Shown here: positions 4,893 through 19,742 of the stretch, one piece after another
Numbering within the stretch: the stretch's first letter is position 1
Layout: every line of letters begins with the position of its first letter
Virus record (IMG/VR): IMGVR_UViG_2681813004_000004
Source of the DNA: a virus
Lineage: Duplodnaviria > Heunggongvirae > Uroviricota > Caudoviricetes
DNA: 19,742 nucleotides
Direction: 5' to 3' (one strand)
Notes under the pieces: model-generated
The model's database searches: none
What the model saw: only the letters and a program-made list of their open reading frames with translations
Told to the model about the DNA's origin: nothing
Position numbers and translations under genes: made by a program

Positions 4893-6792
4893 TATGATGA
4901 GTGCTGTCACAACAGCATTACAGCCCCTGATAAGGGCATTGCCGGTGACGCCAGTTGAATGGGCTGATCAAAATTATTATCTGCCTAAAGAATCTTCATA
5001 TGGTGAGGGAGAATGGAAAACGCTGCCATTCCAGATCGCCATTATGAACTGTATGGGTAACGACCAGGTTCGCACGGTTAACCTGATTAAATCTGCCCGT
5101 GTTGGCTATACAAAGATGTTGCTGGGGGTGGTCGGGTATTTTATTGAGCATAAATCCCGAAACAGTCTGCTTTTTCAGCCCACGGATTCTGCCGCTGAAG
5201 ATTTTATGAAGTCTCACGTGGAGGCGACGATTCGGAACGTGCCATGCCTGAAAGACCTTTCCCCATGGCTGGGTCGTAAACATCGTGACAATACTCTCAC
5301 GCTGAAACGCTTTTCATCGGGCGTCGGTTTCTGGTGCCTGGGCGGCGCTGCCGCCAAAAACTACCGTGAAAAATCCGTGGACGTGGTCTGCTATGACGAA
5401 CTTTCCTCGTTCGAGCCGGATGTCGAAAAAGAGGGCTCGCCAACCCTGCTGGGGGATAAGCGTATTGAGGGGGCGGTGTGGCCAAAATCCATTCGCGGCT
5501 CGACGCCTAAAATCAAAGGCACCTGCCAGATCGAAAAAGCCGCTAACGAGTCGGCGCATTTTATGCGTTTTTATGTGCCCTGCCCGCACTGTGGGGAGGC
5601 GCAGTATCTGAAATTTGGCGATGAGTCCACGCCTTTTGGGCTTAAATGGGAGAAGGACAGCCCCGAAAGTGTTTTCTACCTCTGTGAACATCATGGCTGC
5701 GTGATCCATCAGTCTGAACTGGACCAGAGCAACGGGCGGTGGATCTGTGAAAACACGGGCATGTGGACCCGTGACGGTCTGACGTTTTTCAGCGCCCGGG
5801 GTGATGAAATTCCGCCGCCGCGCTCCATCACGTTCCATATCTGGACGGCGTACAGTCCGTTTACCACCTGGGTACAGATAGTCTATGACTGGCTGGATGC
5901 ACTGAAAGATCCCAACGGCCTGAAAACCTTTGTGAACACCACGCTGGGCGAGACCTGGGAAGAAGCCGTGGGCGAAAAACTCGATCACCAGGTACTGATG
6001 GATAAGGTCGTGCATTACACGGCGGCGGTACCTGCCCGGGTGGTTTATCTGACGGCGGGCATTGACTCGCAGCGAAACCGTTTTGAGATGTATGTCTGGG
6101 GATGGGCACCGGGAGAGGAAGCTTTTCTGGTGGATAAAATCATCATTATGGGCCGTCCCGATGAGGAAGAGACGCTGTTACGTGTGGATGCGGCGATCAA
6201 CAAAAAATACTGCCATGCAGACGGAACCGAAATGACCATTTCCCGTGTCTGCTGGGACACCGGGGGGATCGATGGTGAAATTGTCTATCAGAGGTCAAAA
6301 AAACACGGTGTTTTCCGGGTGCTGCCGGTAAAAGGCGCATCTGTCTATGGCAAGCCGGTGATCACCATGCCGAAAACCCGCAATCAGCGGGGCGTGTATC
6401 TGTGTGAAGTGGGGACGGACACCGCAAAAGAAATTCTCTATGCCCGTATGAAAGCCGATCCCACTCCTGCGGATGAAGCCACGTCGTATGCCATCCGTTT
6501 TCCTGATGATCCGGAGATTTTTTCGCAGACAGAGGCGCAGCAACTGGTGGCGGAAGAGCTTGTGGAGAAGTGGGAAAAAGGAAAGATGCGTCTGCTGTGG
6601 GATAACAAAAAGCGGCGTAACGAAGCGCTGGACTGCCTGGTGTATGCCTACGCGGCATTACGTGTGTCCGTGCAACGCTGGCAGCTTGATCTGGCTGTAC
6701 TGGCAAAATCCCGGGAAGAAGAGACGACCCGGCCAACCCTGAAAGAACTGGCAGCGAAGCTGTCCGGAGGAGTGAATGGTTACAGTCGCTGA
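4864..6792 (+). CDS. A: Terminase large subunit (gpA-like), 642 aa
   Basis: MNISEQQLNN...VEWADQNYYLPKES...KNYREKSVDVV.YDEL...FVNTTLGETWEE...WDNKKRRNEALDC is near-collinear with lambda gpA. The ORF-track start at 4807 is a non-ATG 5' extension; ATG at 4864 matches the lambda start. Confidence 0.95.
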   Translation: MNISEQQLNNMMSAVTTALQPLIRALPVTPVEWADQNYYLPKESSYGEGEWKTLPFQIAIMNCMGNDQVRTVNLIKSARVGYTKMLLGVVGYFIEHKSRNSLLFQPTDSAAEDFMKSHVEATIRNVPCLKDLSPWLGRKHRDNTLTLKRFSSGVGFWCLGGAAAKNYREKSVDVVCYDELSSFEPDVEKEGSPTLLGDKRIEGAVWPKSIRGSTPKIKGTCQIEKAANESAHFMRFYVPCPHCGEAQYLKFGDESTPFGLKWEKDSPESVFYLCEHHGCVIHQSELDQSNGRWICENTGMWTRDGLTFFSARGDEIPPPRSITFHIWTAYSPFTTWVQIVYDWLDALKDPNGLKTFVNTTLGETWEEAVGEKLDHQVLMDKVVHYTAAVPARVVYLTAGIDSQRNRFEMYVWGWAPGEEAFLVDKIIIMGRPDEEETLLRVDAAINKKYCHADGTEMTISRVCWDTGGIDGEIVYQRSKKHGVFRVLPVKGASVYGKPVITMPKTRNQRGVYLCEVGTDTAKEILYARMKADPTPADEATSYAIRFPDDPEIFSQTEAQQLVAEELVEKWEKGKMRLLWDNKKRRNEALDCLVYAYAALRVSVQRWQLDLAVLAKSREEETTRPTLKELAAKLSGGVNGYSR

Positions 6793-6982
6793 ACTACAGG
6801 CGCTACGTCAGGCGCGCCTTGATTTATTAACCGGTAAACGGGTGGTGTCTGTCCAGAAAGATGGTCGCAGAATTGAATATACGGCGGCTTCTCTGGATGA
6901 GCTTAACCGGGCGATCAATGATGCGGAGTCGGTACTGGGGACAACCCGACGTCGCCGTCGTCCGCTGGGAGTGAGGTTATGA
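6776..6982 (+). CDS. W: Head-tail joining protein gpW-like, 68 aa
   Basis: ...LLTGKRVVSVQKDGRRIEYTAASLDEL... resembles lambda gpW; overlaps the A stop and the B start (ATGA). Confidence 0.85.
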   Translation: MVTVAELQALRQARLDLLTGKRVVSVQKDGRRIEYTAASLDELNRAINDAESVLGTTRRRRRPLGVRL

Positions 6983-8571
6983 AACGAACGCCTGTCCTGA
7001 TTGATGTGAACGGCGTTCCGCTTCGTGAGAGTCTCAGCTACAACGGGGGCGGCGCAGGATTTGGCGGGCAAATGGCGGAGTGGTTGCCACCGGCGCAGAG
7101 TGCCGATGCAGCCCTGCTGCCTGCGTTGCGTCTGGGGAATGCCCGGGCAGATGATCTGGTGCGCAATAACGGGATAGCGGCCAATGCGGTGGCCCTGCAT
7201 AAGGATCATATTGTCGGGCATATGTTTCTGATCAGCTACCGTCCGAACTGGCGCTGGCTGGGGATGCGGGAGACTGCGGCAAAAAGTTTTGTCGATGAGG
7301 TGGAGGCGGCCTGGTCGGAATACGCCGAAGGGATGTCTGGCGAGATCGACGTGGAAGAGAAACGCACGTTTACGGAATTTATTCGTGAAGGTGTGGGCGT
7401 TCATGCGTTTAACGGCGAAATCTTTGTGCAGCCGGTCTGGGATACGGAGAGCACGCAACTGTTTCGTACGCGTTTTAAAGCCGTGAGTCCGAAACGGGTG
7501 GACACGCCAGGACACGGTATGGGGAACCGTTTTCTGCGGGCCGGTGTGGAGGTCGATCGATATGGTCGTGCCGTTGCGTACCATATCTGTGAGGATGATT
7601 TTCCATTCTCTGGGAGTGGACGATGGGAACGGATCCCGCGTGAACTTCCCACCGGGCGTCCGGCCATGCTGCATATTTTCGAGCCGGTGGAGGACGGGCA
7701 GACCCGTGGGGCCAATCAGTTTTACAGCGTAATGGAACGGCTGAAGATGCTCGATTCCCTGCAGGCAACACAGCTTCAGTCGGCCATAGTGAAGGCGATG
7801 TATGCAGCGACGATTGAAAGTGACCTTGATACCGAAAAGGCCTTTGAATATATCGCCGGTGCGCCGCAGGGGCAGAAGGATAATCCGCTTATTAATATTC
7901 TGGATAAGTTCTCCACCTGGTATGACACGAATAGCGTGACGCTGGGCGGTGTCAAAATTCCGCACCTTTTCCCCGGTGATGATCTGAAACTTCAGACCGC
8001 GCAGGATTCAGACAATGGATTTTCGGCGCTTGAACAGGCGCTGCTGCGGTATATCGCCGCCGGTCTTGGCGTTTCCTACGAACAGTTGTCCCGTGATTAC
8101 TCGAAGGTCAGTTATTCAAGTGCCCGCGCATCCGCCAATGAGTCGTGGCGCTATTTTATGGGGCGGCGAAAATTTATTGCGTCCCGGCTGGCCACGCAGA
8201 TGTTTTCCTGCTGGCTGGAAGAGGCACTTCTTCGGGGGATTATTCGTCCGCCACGGGCACGTTTTGATTTTTATCAGGCGCGATCAGCCTGGTCACGGGC
8301 TGAGTGGATTGGAGCCGGAAGAATGGCCATTGACGGGCTCAAGGAGGTTCAGGAATCAGTGATGCGCATTGAGGCCGGACTGAGCACGTATGAGAAAGAG
8401 CTGGCGCTGATGGGCGAGGATTATCAGGACATTTTCCGCCAGCAGGTCAGGGAATCTGCAGAGCGGGAAAAAGCCGGACTCTCACGTCCGGTGTGGATAG
8501 CGCAGGCGTATCAGCAGCAGATAGCGGAGAGTCGCAGGCCGGAAGAGGAGACAACACCACGTGAGACGTAA
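6979..8571 (+). CDS. B: Portal protein gpB-like, 530 aa
   Basis: Size and position match lambda gpB (head order A-W-B-C-D-E). Confidence 0.93.
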   Translation: MKRTPVLIDVNGVPLRESLSYNGGGAGFGGQMAEWLPPAQSADAALLPALRLGNARADDLVRNNGIAANAVALHKDHIVGHMFLISYRPNWRWLGMRETAAKSFVDEVEAAWSEYAEGMSGEIDVEEKRTFTEFIREGVGVHAFNGEIFVQPVWDTESTQLFRTRFKAVSPKRVDTPGHGMGNRFLRAGVEVDRYGRAVAYHICEDDFPFSGSGRWERIPRELPTGRPAMLHIFEPVEDGQTRGANQFYSVMERLKMLDSLQATQLQSAIVKAMYAATIESDLDTEKAFEYIAGAPQGQKDNPLINILDKFSTWYDTNSVTLGGVKIPHLFPGDDLKLQTAQDSDNGFSALEQALLRYIAAGLGVSYEQLSRDYSKVSYSSARASANESWRYFMGRRKFIASRLATQMFSCWLEEALLRGIIRPPRARFDFYQARSAWSRAEWIGAGRMAIDGLKEVQESVMRIEAGLSTYEKELALMGEDYQDIFRQQVRESAEREKAGLSRPVWIAQAYQQQIAESRRPEEETTPRET

Positions 8572-10066
8572 TCTTTCACACATTATTGCCGCAGCATTCA
8601 ATGAACCGCTGCTTCTGGAGCCCGCCTATGCGCGGGTTTTCTTTTGCGCGCTCGGGCGCGAGATGGGGGCAGCAAGTCTTTCGGTACCACAACAGCAGGT
8701 ACAGCTTGATGCTCCCGGAATGCTGGCTGAAACGGACGAGTACATGGCCGGAGGTAAACGACCGGCCCGTGTTTACCGGGTGGTGAACGGTATTGCGGTA
8801 CTGCCGGTGACCGGCACGCTGGTGCACCGGCTGGGGGGGATGCGGCCATTTTCCGGAATGACTGGCTATGACGGCATTGTCGCCTGTCTTCAGCAGGCAA
8901 TGGCAGATAGCCAGGTGCGGGGCATACTGCTGGACATTGACAGTCCGGGCGGGCAGGCCGCTGGCGCGTTTGACTGCGCTGACATGATTTACCGCCTCCG
9001 TCAGCAGAAGCCGGTCTGGGCACTGTGCAATGACACGGCCTGTTCTGCAGCCATGCTGCTGGCGTCGGCCTGCTCCCGACGGCTGGTTACCCAGACATCC
9101 CGTATCGGCTCCATTGGCGTGATGATGAGCCATGTCAGCTATGCCGGTCATCTGGCGCAGGCCGGTGTGGATATCACGCTGATTTACTCAGGGGCGCACA
9201 AGGTGGATGGCAATCAGTTTGAAGCCTTACCGGCAGAGGTTCGCCAGGACATGCAGCAGCGCATTGATGCGGCGCGCCGGATGTTTGCCGAAAAAGTGGC
9301 GATGTTTACCGGTCTGTCTGTTGATGCCGTCACGGGAACAGAGGCCGCCGTTTTTGAAGGTCAGTCCGGCATTGAGGCCGGGCTGGCGGATGAATTAGTC
9401 AATGTGTCGGATGCCATCAGTGTGATGGCCACGGCGCTGAACAGTAATGTCAGAGGAGGCACTATGCCGCAATTAACTGCAACGGAAGCCGCCGCGCAGG
9501 AGAACCAGCGAGTGATGGGGATCCTGACATGCCAGGAAGCGAAAGGACGTGAACAGCTTGCCACGATGCTGGCAGGACAACAGGGCATGAGCGTTGCACA
9601 GGCCCGGGCGATTCTGGCCGCGGCGGCACCGCAGCAGCCGGTGGCATCCACGCAGAGTGAAGCCGATCGCATTATGGCGTGTGAAGAAGCGAACGGTCGT
9701 GAACAACTGGCGGCAACGCTGGCGGCGATGCCGGAGATGACGGTGGAAAAAGCCCGCCCGATCCTGGCTGCTTCACCGCAGGCGGATGCCGGACCCTCAC
9801 TCCGTGATCAGATCATGGCACTGGATGAGGCAAAAGGGGCTGAGGCGCAGGCTGAACAGCTGGCTGCCTGCCCGGGAATGACTGTGGAGAGCGCCCGGGC
9901 TGTGCTGGCTGCGGGATCAGGTAAGGCAGAACCGGTCTCTGCATCCACAACCGCCCTGTTTGAACGCATCATGGCGAACCATTCACCGGCAGCGGTACAG
10001 GGTGGCGTGCCACAGACGTCAGCAGACGGTGATGCGGACGTGAAAATGCTCATGGCCATGCCATGA
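8561..10066 (+). CDS. C: Prohead protease / minor capsid protein gpC-like (S49 ClpP-like peptidase) with C-terminal scaffold-like repeat region, 501 aa, GTG start
   Basis: N-terminus ...NEPLLLEPAYARVFF...GIAVLPVTGTLV...KPVWAL...RLVTQTSRIGSIGVMM...ITLIYSG.HKVDGN resembles lambda gpC; C-terminal part contains the IMGIL.C.EA.GREQLA motif three times. Confidence 0.9.
   Translation: MRRNLSHIIAAAFNEPLLLEPAYARVFFCALGREMGAASLSVPQQQVQLDAPGMLAETDEYMAGGKRPARVYRVVNGIAVLPVTGTLVHRLGGMRPFSGMTGYDGIVACLQQAMADSQVRGILLDIDSPGGQAAGAFDCADMIYRLRQQKPVWALCNDTACSAAMLLASACSRRLVTQTSRIGSIGVMMSHVSYAGHLAQAGVDITLIYSGAHKVDGNQFEALPAEVRQDMQQRIDAARRMFAEKVAMFTGLSVDAVTGTEAAVFEGQSGIEAGLADELVNVSDAISVMATALNSNVRGGTMPQLTATEAAAQENQRVMGILTCQEAKGREQLATMLAGQQGMSVAQARAILAAAAPQQPVASTQSEADRIMACEEANGREQLAATLAAMPEMTVEKARPILAASPQADAGPSLRDQIMALDEAKGAEAQAEQLAACPGMTVESARAVLAAGSGKAEPVSASTTALFERIMANHSPAAVQGGVPQTSADGDADVKMLMAMP
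9464..10066 (+). CDS. nu3: Candidate nested in-frame scaffolding protein (Nu3-like) inside the 3' part of C, 200 aa
   Basis: Internal ATG at 9464 preceded by AGGAGG (9454-9459); in lambda, Nu3 is an in-frame internal start within C (established knowledge). Confidence 0.4.
   Translation: MPQLTATEAAAQENQRVMGILTCQEAKGREQLATMLAGQQGMSVAQARAILAAAAPQQPVASTQSEADRIMACEEANGREQLAATLAAMPEMTVEKARPILAASPQADAGPSLRDQIMALDEAKGAEAQAEQLAACPGMTVESARAVLAAGSGKAEPVSASTTALFERIMANHSPAAVQGGVPQTSADGDADVKMLMAMP
9509..9995 (+). repeat. Three and a half diverged tandem repeats (about 45 aa / 140 bp each) within the scaffold region of C/Nu3
   Basis: Protein repeats: RVMGILTCQEAKGREQLATMLAGQQGMSVAQARAILAAAAP / RIMACEEANGREQLAATLAAMPEMTVEKARPILAASP / QIMALDEAKGAEAQAEQLAACPGMTVESARAVLAAGS / RIMANHSPAA. 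Confidence 0.8.
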
Positions 10067-10102
10067 AGTCAGTGCTGATCATCAACAGGAGGTTTTTACA
10101 AT

Positions 10103-10450
10103 ATGGTAACGAAAACCATCACTGAACAGCGTGCGGAAGTACGTATTTTTGCCGGTAATGATCCGGCTCATACCGCCACAGGCAGCAGCGGGATTTCCTC
10201 GGCAACACCGGCACTGACGCCCCTGATGCTGGATGAAGCCAGCGGGAAACTGGTGGTCTGGGACGGACAGAAAGCCGGTAGTGCAGTTGGCATACTGGTA
10301 CTGCCGCTTGAAGGCACAGAGACGGTACTGACCTATTACAAGTCGGGGACCTTTGCGACGGAGGCAATCCGCTGGCCTGAAAGTGTGGATGAACACAAAA
10401 AGGCAAATGCCTTTGCCGGCAGTGCCCTGAGTCACGCGGCGCTGCCGTAA
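10103..10450 (+). CDS. D: Head decoration protein gpD-like, 115 aa
   Basis: ...NDPAHTATGSSG...TPLMLDEASGKLVVWDG...VGILVLPLEG...YYKSGTF...AFAGSAL resembles lambda gpD; AGGAGG upstream. Confidence 0.92.
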   Translation: MVTKTITEQRAEVRIFAGNDPAHTATGSSGISSATPALTPLMLDEASGKLVVWDGQKAGSAVGILVLPLEGTETVLTYYKSGTFATEAIRWPESVDEHKKANAFAGSALSHAALP

Positions 10451-10507
10451 CACGTTATCAGGCCACCGCGGTGGCCTGACTGATTTCTGAATGAAAGGAA
10501 CTGATTT

Positions 10508-11536
10508 ATGGGATTGTTTACGACCCGCCAGTTACTCGGTTATACCGAACAAAAAGTGAAATTTCGTGCGCTGTTTCTGGAGCTGTTTTTCCGCCGTACG
10601 GTGAATTTCCATACCGAAGAGGTGATGCTGGACAAAATTACCGGAAAAACGCCGGTGGCGGCCTATGTCTCCCCGGTTGTTGAAGGAAAAGTGCTGCGTC
10701 ATCGTGGTGGTGAAACCCGCGTGTTACGTCCGGGCTACGTCAAGCCGAAACACGAATTTAATTACCAGCAGGCGGTTGAGCGCCTTCCTGGTGAAGATCC
10801 GGCTCAACTGAACGATCCGGCTTACCGCCGTCTGCGTATCATTACCGATAACCTCAAACAGGAAGAGCACGCGATTGTCCAGGTGGAAGAAATACAGGCG
10901 GTAAATGCTGTGTTGTATGGCAAATATACGATGGAAGGAGACCAGTTCGAGAAAATTGAGGTCGATTTTGGCAGGTCGACGAAGAATAACATCACTCAGG
11001 GTAGTGGTAAGGAGTGGTCAAAACAGGATCGTGACACGTTCGATCCTACACATGATCTTGACCTCTACTGCGACCAGGCCAGCGGTCTTGTGAATATTGC
11101 CATTATGGACGGTACCGTCTGGCGTCTGCTGAATGGCTTTAAATTGTTCCGCGAAAAACTGGATACCCGTCGCGGCTCTAATTCGCAACTCGAAACAGCG
11201 GTGAAAGATCTGGGCGCAGTGGTGTCCTTCAAGGGGTATTACGGCGATCTGGCCATTGTGGTGGCGAAAACGTCTTATATAGCAGAAGACGGTATCGAAA
11301 AACGTTATCTGCCGGAGGGCATGCTGGTTCTGGGGAATACTGCTGCAGATGGGATCCGTTGTTACGGTGCCATTCAGGATGCGCAGGCGTTGTCCGAAGG
11401 TGTGGTGGCCTCTTCCCGTTATCCGAAACACTGGCTGACGGTGGGGGATCCCGCCCGTGAATTTACCATGACGCAGTCCGCGCCGCTGATGGTGTTGCCG
11501 GACCCGGATGAGTTTGTGGTGGTACAGGTGAAATAA
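10508..11536 (+). CDS. E: Major capsid protein gpE-like, 342 aa
   Basis: Size (lambda gpE is about 341 aa) and position directly after D; good RBS context. Confidence 0.93.
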   Translation: MGLFTTRQLLGYTEQKVKFRALFLELFFRRTVNFHTEEVMLDKITGKTPVAAYVSPVVEGKVLRHRGGETRVLRPGYVKPKHEFNYQQAVERLPGEDPAQLNDPAYRRLRIITDNLKQEEHAIVQVEEIQAVNAVLYGKYTMEGDQFEKIEVDFGRSTKNNITQGSGKEWSKQDRDTFDPTHDLDLYCDQASGLVNIAIMDGTVWRLLNGFKLFREKLDTRRGSNSQLETAVKDLGAVVSFKGYYGDLAIVVAKTSYIAEDGIEKRYLPEGMLVLGNTAADGIRCYGAIQDAQALSEGVVASSRYPKHWLTVGDPAREFTMTQSAPLMVLPDPDEFVVVQVK

Positions 11537-11544
11537 TCCGTGAG

Positions 11545-11573
11545 CGGGGGCGAAATGCCCCCGTGTCTTTTTT
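11545..11573 (+). terminator. Rho-independent terminator immediately after the major capsid gene
   Basis: cgggggc / gcccccg stem with gaaat loop followed by tgtctttttt. Confidence 0.6.
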
Positions 11574-11587
11574 CACAGGGGGCTGAT

Positions 11588-11962
11588 ATGGCAACGAAAG
11601 AGCAAAATCTGAAACGGCTTGATGAACTGGCCCTGATTCTGGGGCGTGAGCCGGATATATCCGGGAGTGCCGCAGAGATAGCGCAGCGGGTGGCGGAATG
11701 GGAAGAGGAAATACAGTCATCCGGCGATGATGTACAGGTTATGAATATGGATATCCGGGAGAGGGAAACCGCGGCTCATGATGTTCGTGAGGATACATCC
11801 GGTGCGTTAACGCGCATCAGAGTTCTGACCTGCCTCCATCTCTGTGGCATTGATGGTGAAACAGGGGAATCCGTTGAGATTGCGGATGTTGGTCGGGTGA
11901 TTCTGATTATGTCCTCAGATGCAAAAACACACGTTGATGGCGGAATGGCTGTTTATGCGTGA
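11588..11962 (+). CDS. FI: DNA packaging / head assembly accessory protein gpFI-like, 124 aa
   Basis: Position between E and FII; acidic protein. ATG at 11588 chosen because the ORF-track start at 11540 runs through the terminator hairpin. Confidence 0.65.
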   Translation: MATKEQNLKRLDELALILGREPDISGSAAEIAQRVAEWEEEIQSSGDDVQVMNMDIRERETAAHDVREDTSGALTRIRVLTCLHLCGIDGETGESVEIADVGRVILIMSSDAKTHVDGGMAVYA

Positions 11963-12308
11963 TTTTCAGAATGCCTTTGATGCTGCCCTTGCCGGGGTGG
12001 ACAGTACGATTGTTGAAGTGATGGGGCTCTGTGCACAGTTCACCTCGGGGGCACAGTGTGGCGGAGAAGTTCAGGGGGTTTTTGACGATCCGGAGTCGCT
12101 GGGGTTTGCCGGTGGCGGGGTCCGTATTGAAGGAAGCAGCCCGTCATTATTTGTGCGGACGGATACGGTTCGTGCCGTGCGGCGTGGTGACACGCTGACC
12201 ATTAATGGTGAGATATTCTGGGTGGATCGTGTTTCTCCGGATGACGGGGGCAGCTGTTATCTCTGGCTCAACCGTGGTCAACCACCCGCAGTTAACCGGC
12301 GACGATAA
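11955..12308 (+). CDS. FII: Head-tail connector (head completion) protein gpFII-like, 117 aa
   Basis: MRDFQNAFDAALAGVD...GVFDDPE...GGGVRIEGSSPSLFVRTDTVRAVRRGDTLTI...FWVDRVSPDDGGSCYLWL...PPAVNRRR closely resembles lambda gpFII; ATG at 11955 overlaps the FI stop. Confidence 0.88.
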   Translation: MRDFQNAFDAALAGVDSTIVEVMGLCAQFTSGAQCGGEVQGVFDDPESLGFAGGGVRIEGSSPSLFVRTDTVRAVRRGDTLTINGEIFWVDRVSPDDGGSCYLWLNRGQPPAVNRRR

Positions 12309-12323
12309 ACGCAGGGTGAAATT

Positions 12324-12857
12324 ATGGCGATAAAAGGGCTTGATCAGGCGATTGACAATCTGAGCCGGGTTCGTAAAAACGCCATTCCGGCGGCTTCAGC
12401 AATGGCCATTAACCGCGTGGCCACAACGGCGATTAATCAGTCTTCATCACAGGTTGCCCGGGAGACAAAGGTTCGCCGGAAACTGGTTAAGGAACGGTCC
12501 AGACTGAAACGGGCGACGGTCAGAAATCCGAATGCCAGAATTATCGTTAACCGCGGTGATCTCCCTGTGATTAAGCTGGGGATCAGGATGCCGGGGCGTC
12601 GCCCGAACAGCATACTTAAAGCCGGTCAGCATCGGTATCAGCGGGCATTTATTCAGCGATTAAAAAATGGTCGCTGGCATGTCATGCAGCGTGTGGCCGG
12701 GAAAAACCGTTACCCCATTGATGTGGTGAAAATCCCGATGGCGGCCCCACTGAAACAGGCATTTGATGAGAATGTTGACCGTATCCGGCGTGAACGCCTG
12801 CCTAAAGAACTGGCATCCGCGCTGAAACAACAACTGAGGATTGCAATAAAACGATGA
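12324..12857 (+). CDS. Z: Tail completion protein gpZ-like, 177 aa
   Basis: Position and size match lambda gpZ; its stop overlaps the U start. Confidence 0.85.
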   Translation: MAIKGLDQAIDNLSRVRKNAIPAASAMAINRVATTAINQSSSQVARETKVRRKLVKERSRLKRATVRNPNARIIVNRGDLPVIKLGIRMPGRRPNSILKAGQHRYQRAFIQRLKNGRWHVMQRVAGKNRYPIDVVKIPMAAPLKQAFDENVDRIRRERLPKELASALKQQLRIAIKR

Positions 12858-13249
12858 AACACACTGACATTCGTGCCGCAGTGCTGGATGCACTCGAGCA
12901 GCATGAACACGGGGCGACGCTGTTTGATGGTCGCCCCGTTGTTTTTGACGAAGAGGATTTTCCCGCGGTCGCGGTTTATCTGACGGATGCAGAGTATACC
13001 GGTGAAGAGCTGGATGCAGATACCTGGCGGGCCACACTGCATATTGAGGTGTTTTTACCGGCACAGGTACCGGATTCGGAGCTGGATTCGTGGATGGAAA
13101 GCCGGATTTATCCGGCGATGACTGCGATCCCGGCACTGGCAGACCTGATTACCACGATGGTTACGCAGGGCTATGAGTATCGTCGTGATGACGATATGGC
13201 GTTATGGAGTTCTGCAGATCTGACTTATTCCATTACATACGAGATGTGA
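12854..13249 (+). CDS. U: Tail terminator protein gpU-like, 131 aa
   Basis: [54 protein letters not shown]...[25 protein letters not shown]...[14 protein letters not shown] is near-identical in pattern to lambda gpU. Confidence 0.92.
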
Positions 13250-13256
13250 GGACGAT

Positions 13257-14009
13257 ATGGCAACACCAAATCCCCTTGAGCCGGTAAAAGGTGCCGGTAC
13301 CACTCTGTGGGTTTACAACGGCAAGGGTGATGCTTATGCAAACCCGTTGTCAGACGATGACTGGCAGCGACTGGCTAAGGTGAAGGATCTGACGCCGGGC
13401 GAGATGACGGCAGAACCCTACGATGATAACTACCTGGATGATGAAGACGCGGACTGGACCGCGACCGGGCAGGGGCAGAAGTCTGCAGGAGATACCAGTT
13501 TTACGCTGGCCTGGAAACCGGGAGAAGAAGGTCAGAAAGGGCTTATAGGCTGGTTTGAAAGCGGGGATGTGCGGGCCTATAAAATCCGTTTCCCAAATGG
13601 CACGGTGGATGTGTTCCGTGGCTGGGTCAGCAGTATCGGTAAGGCCGTGACGGCGAAGGAAGTGATCACCCGTACGGTGAAAGTGACCAACGTGGGTAAA
13701 CCTTCTGTGGCGGAAGAACGCAGCGAAATTACGCCGGTCACTGCGATTAAGGTGACGCCGACATCCGGTACGGTGGCAAAAGGGAAAACAACCACCCTGA
13801 CGGTTTCTTTTGAGCCGGAAAGTGCAACCGACAAGACGTTCAGAGCGGTTTCCGCCGATCCGTCGAAAGCCACCATTAGTGTGAAAGATATGACAATTAC
13901 GGTAAACGGCGTGGCGACAGGTAAGGTGCAGATCCCTGTGGTGAGCGGAAATGGTCAGTTCGCCGCAGTGGCTGAAGTCACCGTTACTGAAGCGGGCGCT
14001 GCAGGGTAA
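13257..14009 (+). CDS. V: Major tail tube protein gpV-like with C-terminal Ig-like domain, 250 aa
   Basis: ...[77 protein letters not shown]...[36 protein letters not shown] matches lambda gpV. Confidence 0.95.
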
Positions 14010-14022
14010 ACGGAGGTAATAC

Positions 14023-14454
14023 ATGTTTCTGAAAACAGAACAATTTGAATATAACGGTGTGTCCGTCACGCTTTCCGAATTGTCTGCGCTGCAGCGTATT
14101 GAGCATCTTGCCCTCCTGAAACGGCGTGCAGAACAGGCAGAATCCAGCGGCAACCTGCAGGTAAGCGTGGAAGATCTCGTCAGAACCGGCGCGTTTCTGG
14201 TGGCGATGTCCCTGTGGCATAACCATCCACAGAAAACGGAGTCACCGTCAATGAATGAGGCCGTGATGAAGATAGAGCAGGAAGTGCTCACCACCTGGCC
14301 TGCCGATGCCATTGCCCGGGCGGAAGACGTGGTGTTGTGCCTGTCCGGGATGATCGAAGCTGTTCGTCCGGATACTGATATTACTGAAGTGGCGAAAAAT
14401 AACACGCTGACTGATGATGATTTTTCTGCGGGAAAGTCTTCGACGGCGAGCTGA
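14023..14454 (+). CDS. G: Tail assembly chaperone gpG-like, 143 aa
   Basis: MFLKTEQFEYNGVSVTLSELSALQRIEHLALLKRRAEQAES...GAFLVAMSLWHNHPQKTESPSMNEAV resembles lambda gpG. Confidence 0.9.
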   Translation: MFLKTEQFEYNGVSVTLSELSALQRIEHLALLKRRAEQAESSGNLQVSVEDLVRTGAFLVAMSLWHNHPQKTESPSMNEAVMKIEQEVLTTWPADAIARAEDVVLCLSGMIEAVRPDTDITEVAKNNTLTDDDFSAGKSSTAS

Positions 14455-14894
14455 ACTTTGCCCTCAGACTGGCGCGTGAGATGGGGAGACCCGACTGGCG
14501 CGCCATGCTTGCCGGGATAACATCCACCGAATATGCCGACTGGCACCGTTTTTACCGCACGCATTATTTTCAGGATACCCAGCTGGATATGCATTTTTCC
14601 GGGCTGACGTACGCTGTACTCAGCCTGTTTTTTTGCGATCCGGATATGCATCCCTCTGATTTCAGTCTGCTTGTCCCCCGGCATGAGGAAGAGCAGGTGG
14701 AGAGGCCGGATGAGGACAAAATGCTGATGCAGAAAGCGGCAGGACTTGCCGGAGGCGTCCGGTTCGGTGGGGACGGAGGGCGCGATATTTTATCGTCTGC
14801 GGATGTGGCGGATGTCATGGTGGATGATGCCGCATTAATGATGGCTTCAGCGGGGATTTCCGGAGGTGTGAGATATGTCCCAGCCGGTTGGTGA
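14023..14894 (+). CDS. T: Tail assembly chaperone G-T fusion produced by a programmed -1 ribosomal frameshift at slippery heptamer GGGAAAG (14430-14436)
   Basis: GGGAAAG lies in the 0 frame of G near its 3' end; the -1 frame is open from the slip site to 14894 and encodes ...VFDGELNFALRLAREMGRPDWRAMLAGITSTEYADWHRFY..., matching lambda gpT as I recall it. Confidence 0.8.
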
Positions 14895-17454
14895 TCTTGT
14901 TATTGACCTTAGTCTGGATGCGGTCCGTTTCGATGAGCAGATGAGCCGGGTAAGGCGTCATTTTTCAGGTCTGGATACCGACGCCAGAAAAACCGCCAGT
15001 GCTGTTGAACAGGGCCTGAGCCGCCAGGCGCTGGCTGCACAAAAAGCCGGGATTTCCGTCGGGCAGTATAAAGCGGCCATGCGAACCCTGCCCGCACAGT
15101 TTACGGATATCGCCACGCAGCTTGCCGGTGGTCAGAATCCCTGGCTGATCCTGCTGCAACAGGGCGGTCAGGTGAAGGACTCCTTCGGCGGGATGATCCC
15201 CATGTTCAGGGGGCTTGCCGGTGCGATCACCCTGCCGATGGTCGGGGTCACCTCGCTGGCGGTGGCGACAGGTGCGCTGGCGTACGCCTGGTACCAGGGG
15301 GATTCCACGCTTTCAGCGTTTAATAAAACCCTGGTTCTTTCCGGTAATCAGTCCGGACTGACTGCCGATCGTATGCTGACTCTCTCAAGAGCCGGGCAGG
15401 CAGCAGGGCTGACGTTTAACCAGGCGAGAGAGTCACTGGCAGCCCTGGTGAATGCCGGTGTGCGTGGTGGTGAACAGTTTGATGCCATCAACCAGAGTGT
15501 CGCGCGTTTTGCGTCTGCATCCGGTGTGGAGGTGGATAAAGTCGCTGAAGCCTTCGGGAAGCTGACCACTGACCCGACGTCGGGACTGATGGCGATGGCG
15601 CGCCAGTTCCGTAACGTGACGGCAGAGCAGATTGCGTATGTTGCACAGCTGCAGCGTTCCGGAGACGAGGCCGGGGCATTGCAGGCGGCGAACGATATCG
15701 CCACGAAAGGCTTTGATGAGCAGACCCGTCGCCTGAAAGAAAACATGGGAACACTGGAGACCTGGGCGGATAAAACAGGGAAGGCATTCAAATCGATGTG
15801 GGATGCCATTCTGGATATCGGTCGTCCGGAATCCTCAGCGGATATGCTCGCCAGTGCGCAGAAGGCATTTGATGAGGCGGATAAAAAATGGCAGTGGTAC
15901 CAGAGTCGGAGCCAGCGCCGCGGTAAAACCTCCTCTTTCCGGGCCAACCTTCAGGGCGCATGGAATGACCGGGAAAATGCCCGTCTGGGGCTGGCAGCGG
16001 CCACGCTGCAGTCGGATATGGAAAAAGCCGGTGAACTGGCCGCCAGGGACCGGGCCGAACGGGACGCATCACAGCTGAAGTATACCGGAGAGGCGCAGAA
16101 GGCGTATGAGCGTCTGCTGACGCCGCTGGAGAAATATACCGCCCGTCAGGAAGAACTGAATAAGGCCCTGAAAGACGGGAAAATCCTGCAGGCGGATTAC
16201 AACACGCTGATGGCGGCGGCGAAAAAGGATTATGAATCGACGCTGAAAAAGCCGAAGTCGTCAGGAGTCAAAGTGTCAGCCGGTGAGCGTCAGGAAGACC
16301 AGGCGCATGCTGCCCTGCTGGCGCTTGAAACCGAGCTCCGGACGCTGGAAAAACACAGCGGTGCGAATGGGAAAATCAGCCAGCAGCGTCGCGATTTATG
16401 GAAAGCGGAAAATCAGTATGCGGTCCTGAAAGAGGCAGCCACGAAACGGCAGTTATCTGAGCAGGAAAAATCCCTGCTGACCCATGAGAAAGAGACGCTG
16501 GAGTACAAACGCCAGCTGGCTGAGCTGGGAGACAAAGTTGAACACCAGAAACGGCTGAATGAGCTGGCACAGCAGGCTGCGCGGTTTGAGCAGCAGCAGG
16601 GCGCGAAGCAGGCGGCAATCAGTGCCCAGGCGCGGGGCCTCACCGACCGTCAGGTGCAGCGGGAGTCGGAAGAGCAGCGCCTTCGTGACGTGTACGGTGA
16701 TAATCCGGATGCGCTGGCGAAGGCCACATCTGCACTGAAGAACACCTGGTCTGCGGAGGAGCAGCTTCGTGGAAGCTGGATGGCCGGTCTGAAGTCCGGC
16801 TGGGGCGAGTGGGCAGAAAGTGCGACGGACAGTTTTTCGCAGGTTAAAAGCGTGGCCACGCAGACCTTTGACGGTATTGCACAGAATATGGCAGCGATGC
16901 TGACCGGCAGCGAACAGAGCTGGCGTGGTTTCACCCGTTCTGTGCTCTCCATGTTGACAGAGATTTTTCTGAAGCAGGCCATGGTGGGGATTGTCGGGAG
17001 TATTGGCAGCGCCATGGGTGGTGCTTTCGGTGGTGGGGCGTCTGCCTCCACGGGGACGGCCATTCAGGCTGCGGCGGCGAACTTCCATTTCGCGACCGGA
17101 GGATTTACGGGAACCGGTGGCAAATACGAACCTGCCGGTATTGTCCACCGCGGGGAGTTTGTCTTCACGAAGGAGGCAACCAGCCGGATTGGCGTCGGCA
17201 ACCTGTATCGTCTGATGCGCGGGTATGCGGAAGGTGGTTATGTGGGCGGTGCCGGAAGTCCGGCGCAGATGCGGCGGGCGGAAGGCATTAGTTTTAATCA
17301 GAACAATCACGTGGTGATTCAGAACGACGGCACCAACGGACAGGCGGGGCCGCAGCTGATGAAGGCGGTGTATGACATGGCCCGCAAGGGGGCGCAGGAT
17401 GAGATTCAGGCGCAGATGCGTGATGGCGGCGTCTTTTCCGGAGGCAGGCGATGA
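14875..17454 (+). CDS. H: Tail tape measure protein gpH-like, 859 aa
   Basis: MSQPVGDLVIDLSLDAVRFDEQMSRVRRHFSG... and long stretches collinear with lambda gpH; GGAGGTG RBS. Confidence 0.95.
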   Translation: MSQPVGDLVIDLSLDAVRFDEQMSRVRRHFSGLDTDARKTASAVEQGLSRQALAAQKAGISVGQYKAAMRTLPAQFTDIATQLAGGQNPWLILLQQGGQVKDSFGGMIPMFRGLAGAITLPMVGVTSLAVATGALAYAWYQGDSTLSAFNKTLVLSGNQSGLTADRMLTLSRAGQAAGLTFNQARESLAALVNAGVRGGEQFDAINQSVARFASASGVEVDKVAEAFGKLTTDPTSGLMAMARQFRNVTAEQIAYVAQLQRSGDEAGALQAANDIATKGFDEQTRRLKENMGTLETWADKTGKAFKSMWDAILDIGRPESSADMLASAQKAFDEADKKWQWYQSRSQRRGKTSSFRANLQGAWNDRENARLGLAAATLQSDMEKAGELAARDRAERDASQLKYTGEAQKAYERLLTPLEKYTARQEELNKALKDGKILQADYNTLMAAAKKDYESTLKKPKSSGVKVSAGERQEDQAHAALLALETELRTLEKHSGANGKISQQRRDLWKAENQYAVLKEAATKRQLSEQEKSLLTHEKETLEYKRQLAELGDKVEHQKRLNELAQQAARFEQQQGAKQAAISAQARGLTDRQVQRESEEQRLRDVYGDNPDALAKATSALKNTWSAEEQLRGSWMAGLKSGWGEWAESATDSFSQVKSVATQTFDGIAQNMAAMLTGSEQSWRGFTRSVLSMLTEIFLKQAMVGIVGSIGSAMGGAFGGGASASTGTAIQAAAANFHFATGGFTGTGGKYEPAGIVHRGEFVFTKEATSRIGVGNLYRLMRGYAEGGYVGGAGSPAQMRRAEGISFNQNNHVVIQNDGTNGQAGPQLMKAVYDMARKGAQDEIQAQMRDGGVFSGGRR

Positions 17455-17780
17455 AAACATTTCGCTGGAAAGTGAAGCCGGATATGGAGGTGAACTCGCA
17501 GCCATCGGTGCGTGAAGTGCGTTTTGGTGACGGGTATTCGCAGCGTATGGCGGCGGGGCTGAATGCTGACCTGAAAACATACCGTGTGACGCTTTCCGTG
17601 ACCCGGGAGGAGGCCCGACATCTGGAGGCATTCCTGGCAGAGCACGGTGGCTGGAAGGCGTTTCTGTGGACACCGCCTTATGCCTGGCGGCAGATAAAGG
17701 TGACCTGTGCCGCCTGGTCATCACGGGTTCGCATGCTGCGGGTTGAATTCAGCGCGGAGTTTAAGCAGGTGGTGAACTGA
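17451..17780 (+). CDS. M: Minor tail protein gpM-like, 109 aa
   Basis: MKTFRWKVKP...VRFGDGYSQR...LKTYRVTLSV...HGGWKAFLWTPPYAWRQIKVTCAAWSSRV.MLRVEFSAEFKQVVN closely matches lambda gpM. Confidence 0.93.
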   Translation: MKTFRWKVKPDMEVNSQPSVREVRFGDGYSQRMAAGLNADLKTYRVTLSVTREEARHLEAFLAEHGGWKAFLWTPPYAWRQIKVTCAAWSSRVRMLRVEFSAEFKQVVN

Positions 17781-18478
17781 TGCAGGATATTCACGAAGAA
17801 AGTCTGAACGAGTCGGTTAAATCAGAGCAGTCACCGCGGGTGGTACTCTGGGAAATCGACCTGACGGTACAGGGTGGTGAGCGGTATTTTTTCTGCAATG
17901 AGCTGAATGAAAAAGGGGAGGCGGTCACCTGGCAGGGGCGGCAATATCAGGCATACCCGATTGACGGCAGTGGCTTTGAGATGAACGGGAAGGGCAGCAG
18001 TGCCCGCCCGTCGCTGACGGTGTCGAATCTGTTCGGTCTGGTCACCGGAATGGCGGAGGACCTGCAGAGCCTGGTGGGGGCCACGGTGGTCCGCCGCCGG
18101 GTGTATGCCCGTTTTCTGGATGCGGTGAATTTTGTGGCGGGCAATCCGGAAGCGGACCCGGAGCAGGAGCTGAGCGACCGCTGGGTGGTGGAGCAGATGT
18201 CAGAGCTGACGGCCATGACAGCCTCGTTTGTGCTGGCAACACCGACGGAGACGGACGGAGCGCTGTTTCCCGGTCGCATCATGCTGGCGAACACCTGTAT
18301 GTGGGATTACCGGGGAGATGAATGCGGGTATAACGGTCCTGCGGTGGCGGATGAGTTCGATAAACCCACCACCGATATCCGTAAGGACAGATGCAGCAAG
18401 TGCATGCGCGGGTGTGAGATGCGCGGCATGGTGGCTAATTTTGGCGGTTTCCTTTCCATTAACAAACTTTCGCAGTAA
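17780..18478 (+). CDS. L: Minor tail protein gpL-like, copy 1, 232 aa
   Basis: Position after M; size equals lambda gpL; C-terminal Cys-rich region (CMWDYRGDECGYNG...CSKCMRGC). Confidence 0.9.
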   Translation: MQDIHEESLNESVKSEQSPRVVLWEIDLTVQGGERYFFCNELNEKGEAVTWQGRQYQAYPIDGSGFEMNGKGSSARPSLTVSNLFGLVTGMAEDLQSLVGATVVRRRVYARFLDAVNFVAGNPEADPEQELSDRWVVEQMSELTAMTASFVLATPTETDGALFPGRIMLANTCMWDYRGDECGYNGPAVADEFDKPTTDIRKDRCSKCMRGCEMRGMVANFGGFLSINKLSQ

Positions 18479-18483
18479 ATCCA

Positions 18484-18840
18484 ATGACACAGACAGAATC
18501 AGCGATTCTGGCGCATGCCCGGCGGTGTGTGCCTGCGGAGTCGTGCGGCTTCGTGGTGAGAACGCCGGAGGGGGAGCGGTATATCCCTTGTGTGAATATC
18601 TCTGCAGAGCCGGAGGCGTATTTTCGTATTGCACCGGAAGACTGGCTGCGGGCAGAGATGCAGGGGGAGATTGTGGCACTGGTCCACAGTCATCCCGGTG
18701 GTCTGCCCTGGCTGAGCGAGGCCGACCGGCGGCTGCAGATAAAAAGTGCACTGTCCTGGTGGCTGGTCTGCCGGGGGGAAATTCATAAATTCCGCTGTGT
18801 GCCACATCTGACAGGACGGCGCTTTGAGAGCAGGTGGTGA
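18484..18840 (+). pseudogene. K: Truncated gpK-like ORF (K', 118 aa) retaining the N-terminal JAB/MPN-type motif; truncated at the duplication junction
   Basis: MTQTESAILAHARRCVPAESCGFVV...IVALVHSHPGGLPWLSEADRR...HLTGRRFE then SRW-stop, read from M-end sequence in another frame; full-length lambda gpK is about 199 aa. Confidence 0.7.
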
Positions 18841-18844
18841 ACTG

Positions 18845-19543
18845 ATGCAGGATATTCACGAAGAAAGTCTGAACGAGTCGGTTAAATCAGAGCAGTCACC
18901 GCGGGTGGTACTCTGGGAAATCGACCTGACGGTACAGGGTGGTGAGCGGTATTTTTTCTGCAATGAGCTGAATGAAAAAGGGGAGGCGGTCACCTGGCAG
19001 GGGCGGCAATATCAGGCATACCCGATTGACGGCAGTGGCTTTGAGATGAACGGGAAGGGCAGCAGTGCCCGCCCGTCGCTGACGGTGTCGAATCTGTTCG
19101 GTCTGGTCACCGGAATGGCGGAGGACCTGCAGAGCCTGGTGGGGGCCACGGTGGTCCGCCGCCGGGTGTATGCCCGTTTTCTGGATGCGGTGAATTTTGT
19201 GGCGGGCAATCCGGAAGCGGACCCGGAGCAGGAGCTGAGCGACCGCTGGGTGGTGGAGCAGATGTCAGAGCTGACGGCCATGACAGCCTCGTTTGTGCTG
19301 GCAACACCGACGGAGACGGACGGAGCGCTGTTTCCCGGTCGCATCATGCTGGCGAACACCTGTATGTGGGATTACCGGGGAGATGAATGCGGGTATAACG
19401 GTCCTGCGGTGGCGGATGAGTTCGATAAACCCACCACCGATATCCGTAAGGACAGATGCAGCAAGTGCATGCGCGGGTGTGAGATGCGCGGCATGGTGGC
19501 TAATTTTGGCGGTTTCCTTTCCATTAACAAACTTTCGCAGTAA
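18845..19543 (+). CDS. L: Minor tail protein gpL-like, copy 2, identical to copy 1
   Basis: Identical 232-aa translation; ATG at 18845 (the ORF-track start at 18824 is a TTG extension created by the junction). Confidence 0.85.
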   Translation: MQDIHEESLNESVKSEQSPRVVLWEIDLTVQGGERYFFCNELNEKGEAVTWQGRQYQAYPIDGSGFEMNGKGSSARPSLTVSNLFGLVTGMAEDLQSLVGATVVRRRVYARFLDAVNFVAGNPEADPEQELSDRWVVEQMSELTAMTASFVLATPTETDGALFPGRIMLANTCMWDYRGDECGYNGPAVADEFDKPTTDIRKDRCSKCMRGCEMRGMVANFGGFLSINKLSQ

Positions 19544-19548
19544 ATCCA

Positions 19549-19742
19549 ATGACACAGACAGAATCAGCGATTCTGGCGCATGCCCGGCGGTGTGTGCCTG
19601 CGGAGTCGTGCGGCTTCGTGGTGAGAACGCCGGAGGGGGAGCGGTATATCCCTTGTGTGAATATCTCTGCAGAGCCGGAGGCGTATTTTCGTATTGCACC
19701 GGAAGACTGGCTGCGGGCAGAGATGCAGGGGGAGATTGTGGC
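19549..19742 (+). CDS. K: gpK-like tail protein, copy 2, 5' portion only (continues beyond the window)
   Basis: Identical to the first 64 codons of K'; frame is open to the window edge. Confidence 0.8.
   Translation, partial: MTQTESAILAHARRCVPAESCGFVVRTPEGERYIPCVNISAEPEAYFRIAPEDWLRAEMQGEIV

Follow-up and report, generated by a model that had tools for sequence, protein, structure and literature searches.

The window, as we call the whole stretch of 19,742 nucleotides that was analyzed (IMG/VR record IMGVR_UViG_2681813004_000004, Caudoviricetes), carries a lambda-like late operon in which the portal gene is followed by gene C, the decoration gene and the gene for the major capsid protein (MCP), an order with which the annotation of phage 21 agrees. 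Gene C (8561-10066) overlaps the end of the portal gene (6979-8571) by 11 nt. The features of the locus are the following:

6979-8571: portal gene, from the list of open reading frames (ORFs)
8561-10066, plus strand: homologue of lambda gene C, corresponding to phage 21 gene 5, GTG start, 501 amino acids, S49 prohead protease with a C-terminal scaffold domain
8996-9439, plus strand: Peptidase_S49 domain (gpC residues 146-293; Pfam PF01343, E 2.5e-35)
9453-9459, plus strand: Shine-Dalgarno (SD) sequence GAGGAGG for the nested gene, read from the sequence, within the gene C codons R-G-G
9464-10066, plus strand: nested gene in the same frame, corresponding to phage 21 gene 6 (Nu3 analogue), for a predicted 200-aa scaffolding protein
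9500-9631, plus strand: repeat unit 1 (gpC residues 314-357), covering the GenBank 'Tri1 box'
9659-9781, plus strand: repeat unit 2 (gpC residues 367-407), with the GenBank 'Tri box' at 9671-9781
9800-9925, plus strand: repeat unit 3 (gpC residues 414-455), with the GenBank 'Tri3 box' at 9812-9925
9953-9979, plus strand: conserved C-terminal tail motif ALFERIMAN (z = -0.2 to -1.4 alone against shuffles)
10103-10450: decoration gene, from the ORF list
10508-11536: MCP gene, from the ORF list

The ORF at 8561-10066 is a homologue of lambda gene C, with a predicted prohead protease and scaffold domain. Its 501-aa product matches PF01343 with 122 bits, compared to a Pfam cut-off of 24.9, and shares 54% identity with lambda gpC over 412 columns (BLASTP, E 4e-135), and the gene C/Nu3-like identity assigned in the original prediction is thereby upheld. 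In a sequence search of the PDB, the SppA structures 3rst and 4kwb match residues 77-290 (E about 1e-16); this search returned nothing for the scaffold part, the SppA and ClpP matches being confined to the protease part. The S49 domain, the homology to gpC, the position in the operon and an SD sequence with an ATG at the junction of protease and scaffold together place the locus among the lambda-type C/Nu3 pairs.

The triplication and the nested gene are already known, both having entered the annotation of phage 21 in the early 1990s. This prior description is found in the feature table of GenBank record M81255.1 ('Bacteriophage 21 head gene operon', 1993), where gene 6 is nested in gene 5 and provided with a ribosome binding site (RBS); gene 6 projects onto window positions 9464-10066 and its RBS onto 9453-9457. 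The complete phage 21 genome (OL657228.1) likewise has the RBS annotated and names the nested gene 'scaffolding protein'. M81255.1 further contains three repeat_region features with the remark 'function unknown; putative':

Tri1 box: record 5542-5645, window 9531-9634
Tri box: record 5682-5792, window 9671-9781
Tri3 box: record 5823-5936, window 9812-9925

The ORF has the same length as phage 21 gene 5 and is 98.4% identical to it over 1506 nt, while several phage 21-like phages show 98.4-98.5% nucleotide identity across its full length. At the protein level there are 11 differences from phage 21 gp5, e.g., E346A in unit 1 and V373A in unit 2. A search of the open-access literature on phage 21 and Nu3 returned nothing relevant, and no later work on the unit was found. 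Two details of the phage 21 records deserve mention on their own. In M81255.1 the product of gene 4 (portal) is called 'head-tail preconnector gp5', a name also used for gene 5, which looks like a clerical slip. In OL657228.1 two 'transcription factor CII' sites (TTGYNNNNNNTTGY) are placed within gene 6, on the strand that does not encode it (window 9469-9482 and 9703-9716, both minus strand); as the pattern occurs four times in the window while 3.6 occurrences are expected by chance, these are probably chance matches and we rejected them as meaningful sites.

Outside the head genes the relationship to phage 21 is looser. With megablast, the matches to phage 21 and ev017 are confined to window positions 4946-19742, at about 87.6% overall, and those to PhiR12-type phages begin at position 555. 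Given this weaker and partial match, the window represents a related mosaic prophage or phage that is distinct from phage 21. For the head genes, the closest match comes from E. coli O145:H28 12E115, whose defective prophage is 100% identical over 9464-10066 and carries IS3 insertions and the type III secretion system effector genes nleH, cif and espJ.

In the C-terminal 200 amino acids of gpC a tandem helical unit of 42-45 amino acids occurs in three significant copies. A BLASTP self-comparison gave the diagonal only and was replaced by Smith-Waterman alignment with shuffles: the unit pairs score 80-97 against shuffle means of 26-27 +/- 5 (z = 10.4-13.9), and each unit scores 75-82 bits on a profile built from the three units and the lambda unit. 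The identity between units of the window protein is 45-52% at the amino acid level and 56-63% at the DNA level. The consensus, RI..L.CeEAKGRE.lA..LA.tpGMtVe.AkaiLAAAP, is the most conserved element of the scaffold family, and the scaffold and Nu3 families of PHROG give three matching stretches each in the window protein. The three profile matches lie at the annotated coordinates of the phage 21 gene 6 Tri boxes. Tandem Repeats Finder (TRF) detects no tandem repeat in the DNA of the units and a DNA repeat finder returns three short families but no tandem array, so the repeat is visible at the protein level only. With DNA copies that are 56-63% identical and an empty TRF result, the duplication is old, exactly as the original prediction had it when it called the copies diverged and not recent.

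That the repetition is a compositional artefact of an Ala-rich, low-complexity helical segment, with no true internal duplication behind it, would suit the alanine content of the scaffold (23.5%) as well as the negative TRF result, but this explanation is already refuted by the shuffles, none of which (0 of 2000, composition-preserving) reaches the observed unit-pair score. In addition, an in-register alignment of the units extends over 36-44 residues and contains 15 positions that are invariant in all three, each unit is recognized by the profile to which the lambda unit also contributed, and the same three boxes were independently annotated in GenBank. We consider the chance of such an artefact negligible, and retain a genuine triplication, as was originally proposed.

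The 'half' fourth copy that had been added to the three does not withstand the same treatment. This segment corresponds to the motif ALFERIMAN, which alone stays within the range of the shuffles and trails the last unit in every relative examined. A motif of this type also follows lambda's single unit (ALDRLMQ) and the fourth unit of a lineage with four units. A 15-nt DNA family links positions 9664, 9805 and 9961. Since ALFERIMAN has a counterpart behind the only unit of lambda, we regard it as a conserved tail element and see no evidence of an extra copy in it. In lambda gpC, the profile finds exactly one unit (residues 357-400, 83 bits), in line with the original prediction.

The second gene of the locus starts inside the first. 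ATG 9464 is codon 302 of gene C, in frame, and is preceded by GAGGAGG at a short spacing of 4 nt. Of all in-frame ATG, GTG and TTG codons it has the strongest SD:anti-SD pairing (-12.0 kcal/mol, compared to -9.1 kcal/mol at the start of gene C). The predicted product begins with MPQLTATE, has 200 amino acids, 20.5 kDa and a pI of 4.6, and is Ala-rich. At the same alignment position an SD sequence and an ATG are present in lambda (ATG 5342, -10.8 kcal/mol) and in two IMG/VR loci, L073 and L081, while the residues in front of the methionine are not conserved (RGGT, SGGR, KENT and QENT across window, lambda, L073 and L081). Because the SD sequence and the ATG are kept while the encoded residues differ, what is conserved is the nucleotide signal, not the peptide, a pattern that selection on a translation signal would produce. 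Both the internal start with its upstream SD and, at the sequence level, the 200-aa scaffold initiated from it thus agree with what had been predicted, and both phage 21 records annotate this gene (gene 6, 'scaffolding protein').

One frame would consequently give rise to two co-terminal proteins, a protease-scaffold of 501 amino acids and a scaffold of 200 amino acids from ATG 9464, the latter presumably being far more abundant. The scaffold part common to both opens with a 12-aa leader, continues with three modules joined through flexible linkers rich in Pro, Ala and Gln, and closes with a conserved tail of some 45 amino acids. If ATG 9464 were a mere internal methionine, only full-length gpC would be made and its C-terminal domain would act as the scaffold. 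Automated annotation (PGAP) of E. coli genomes is in line with such a single product, as it gives one CDS only, named 'S49 family peptidase' (e.g., L086 9098-10603), and so is the disagreement between lambda records on the nu3 start (5132 in NC_001416, 5035 in OM418626). It would nevertheless leave the strongest SD of the entire ORF at this very codon, and the retention of an SD and ATG at the homologous junction in four lineages despite differing amino acids, to coincidence. Lambda genetics also speaks against it, a separate Nu3 product that is co-terminal with gpC reportedly having been established there (Ray & Murialdo 1975; Shaw & Murialdo 1980). A single product is accordingly improbable, and we proceed with two co-terminal proteins.

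The same comparison touches on lambda itself. The annotation of the lambda nu3 start is inconsistent between records (loci L003, which is NC_001416, and L084). ATG 5342, codon 309 of lambda gene C, has a far better SD than the RefSeq start at 5132 (-6.9 kcal/mol) and belongs to the conserved junction, so that the RefSeq start looks inconsistent and the RefSeq nu3 CDS is probably too long. The product predicted from ATG 5342 has 131 amino acids and 13,394 Da, in agreement with the size of purified gpNu3.

The number of units varies among relatives. Copies were counted in a scan of IMG/VR that started from the protease domain and in a profile search of representatives; a search for protein homologues gave mostly fragments and was used for deletion variants, not for copy counts. 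In the IMG/VR scan, 62 of the 80 loci have the 501-aa form with three units, 11 (L073-L083) a 538-aa form with four units and a protease 72-75% identical to that of the window, and a single one (L005) a 451-aa form with two units. The profile of the three units, run against 1.84 billion representatives, matches 450 proteins (E <= 1e-3), and 133 of the best 150 of these 450 carry one unit (about 90%). Among the matches of at least 350 amino acids there are 54 proteins with a single unit, one with two and one with three; 52 of the 54 single-unit proteins also carry a gpC-type protease, and the unit ends at a median of 50 amino acids from the C-terminus. The copy number among relatives thus ranges from 1 to 4. 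With one unit in about 90% of diverse relatives, a single copy is the usual state, and proteins with several copies represent a clade-specific expansion.

The nearest counterparts of unit 1 are invariably the first units of other proteins and the unit of lambda; to judge from its sequence, unit 1 of the window is the orthologue of lambda's single unit. In a comparison with the Salmonella protein P0027, unit 2 is 76% identical to unit 2 and unit 3 is 60% identical to unit 3, compared to 45-52% between units within the window. Like units being closer across the two proteins than different units within one of them, the triplication is older than the split between them. An old tandem triplication in the phage 21/Gifsy-like clade produced three units from a normally single module. 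In the four-unit lineage, by contrast with the 45-52% in the window, the units share 75-90% identity among themselves, which suggests either a recent duplication or homogenization by concerted evolution. The reference locus for this lineage lies outside the window:

L073, 2501-4117: gpC with four units, on an IMG/VR prophage contig

Variants with fewer or incomplete units come from prophage contigs and protein fragments. In the 451-aa gpC of L005, units 1 and 2 are fused exactly in register into one hybrid unit, with the junction inside the GREQLA that they share, and P0018 is a further hybrid of the same units, joined at QAR|PIL. In L041 (482 aa), P0009 and P0011, 19 amino acids of unit 2 are deleted; P0016 and P0021 are also listed among the variants with loss, fusion or partial deletion of unit 2. 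To the extent that sequences can tell, these hybrids and deletions point to the products expected of unequal recombination between diverged units, a process by which the copy number would drift between 1 and 4.

This variation is not accompanied by a change in the capsid protein. The MCP has 341 amino acids in lambda (one unit), 342 in the window (three units) and 342 in L073 (four units), the latter aligning without gaps and with 83% identity to the MCP of the window. With a constant MCP length across one, three and four units, the copy number does not track the size of the capsid protein, and we rejected a scaling of repeat number with capsid size.

What the module does must be approached via models and related systems. 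AlphaFold2 was run without an alignment and with an alignment of 25 sequences. The resulting scaffold models are of moderate confidence (mean pLDDT 64-68) and depict the units as small helical modules (pLDDT 70-89) separated by low-confidence linkers, with a pTM of 0.27-0.30. The models fit a scaffold made of independent beads on a flexible string. A Foldseek search with two whole-chain models (pLDDT 64-68, poor probes for a module of 40 amino acids) gave no match in the PDB at E <= 0.001, and the best matches in BFVD, all sub-threshold, are C-terminal parts of S49 prohead proteases (56-60 residues, 1.4-2.7 A). Given models of moderate confidence and no match to a solved structure, a capsid-binding role rests on analogy. 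By this analogy, drawn from targeting domains of other scaffolds and proteases, co-assembly with the MCP is most likely the role of the module: it would be the element by which scaffold and protease co-assemble with the MCP inside the procapsid, and, being shared by the C-termini of both proteins, it would direct the protease there as well. With three copies this interaction would become multivalent, the capsid geometry remaining unchanged.

The units may also be modules for self-association of the scaffold, by dimerization or oligomerization, and not for MCP binding, in which case a triplication would alter the geometry of the oligomer. Lambda Nu3 self-interacts in yeast two-hybrid and reportedly dimerizes, and the same study found Nu3-E and Nu3-C interactions as well (PMC3224144). 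As all three contacts are reported, self-association is a serious alternative, and the unit is indeed the sole well-conserved folded element of lambda's 131-aa scaffold. The Nu3-E and Nu3-C contacts pull in the other direction, and the AlphaFold2 models have no packing between units (pTM 0.27). We hold self-association to be possible but doubtful as the function of the units. A helix-hairpin-helix (HHH)-like, nucleic acid-binding motif is a much weaker contender. Unit 3 gives a weak Pfam match of this kind (residues 427-450, E 0.093), and the string G-M-T-V-x-x-A-+-x-I-L superficially resembles hGhGxxxAxxI. The match reaches 13.1 bits against a cut-off of 24 for PF00633 and is limited to one unit, the scaffold is acidic (pI 4.6), and Foldseek finds no HhH match above noise, with RuvA at a probability of 0.03. 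Moreover, scaffolds are removed from the capsid, by exit or degradation, ahead of DNA entry. Nucleic acid binding is hence very improbable.

Taken together, we propose that the window contains a phage 21-type nested C/Nu3 pair on a phage 21-like prophage or phage, with a triplicated module that would co-assemble with the MCP and whose copy number would drift, and we assign this reading as a whole a probability of roughly 0.88. A more specific version, in which the module is a self-contained and redundant MCP-binding unit whose copy number (1-4 in natural variants, which work with near-identical MCPs of 342 amino acids) tunes avidity or stoichiometry of the contacts between scaffold and capsid and changes freely by unequal recombination, is a tentative suggestion that we do not favor. 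If true, it would offer a natural 'valency series' for the effect of scaffold multivalency on assembly fidelity.

As a discovery the feature carries little weight, since it is ordinary and extremely common: about a third of the complete E. coli genomes (1870 of 5426) contain the scaffold segment 9464-10066, in up to five places per genome. New here are the survey of unit copy number, the hybrid and deletion variants, the comparison of MCP lengths and the occurrence in E. coli. The practical value is modest and concerns annotation, as the nested scaffold gene is systematically missing from the automated (PGAP) annotation of these prophages and the RefSeq lambda nu3 start disagrees with the conserved SD and ATG. 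Beyond that, the natural series of one, two, three and four units provides ready-made constructs for probing the role of a conserved scaffold module.

Among known systems, the scaffold gp8 of phage P22 provides the functional analogy for MCP binding. It has a small helical module near the C-terminus of an extended, flexible and acidic scaffold, and its last helix carries conserved basic residues, comparable to the AR/AK of the units. This C-terminal helix-turn-helix domain, which binds the coat protein, is a single module in gp8, with no fused protease, and no similarity between it and the units was detected in sequence or by Foldseek against the PDB (with whole-chain models of moderate confidence). 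The lambda C/Nu3 pair is much closer: the protease parts are 60% identical, the operon position is the same, an SD and ATG lie at the junction of protease and scaffold, and the same unit and tail motif (xLxRhM) are present. The scaffold parts, on the other hand, are only 26% identical globally; lambda has one unit behind a 48-aa spacer in its 131-aa product from ATG 5342, whereas the window has a 12-aa leader and three units in 200 amino acids. The four-unit lineage shares the architecture, the protease (72-75% identity), the MCP (83% identity) and the SD and ATG at the junction. Genes 5 and 6 of phage 21, finally, represent the same feature as that of the window, with start codons, RBS, nested gene 6 and three boxes at the same positions, and differ from it by the 11 amino acid substitutions and by a weaker match outside the head genes (73% coverage at 87.6% identity).
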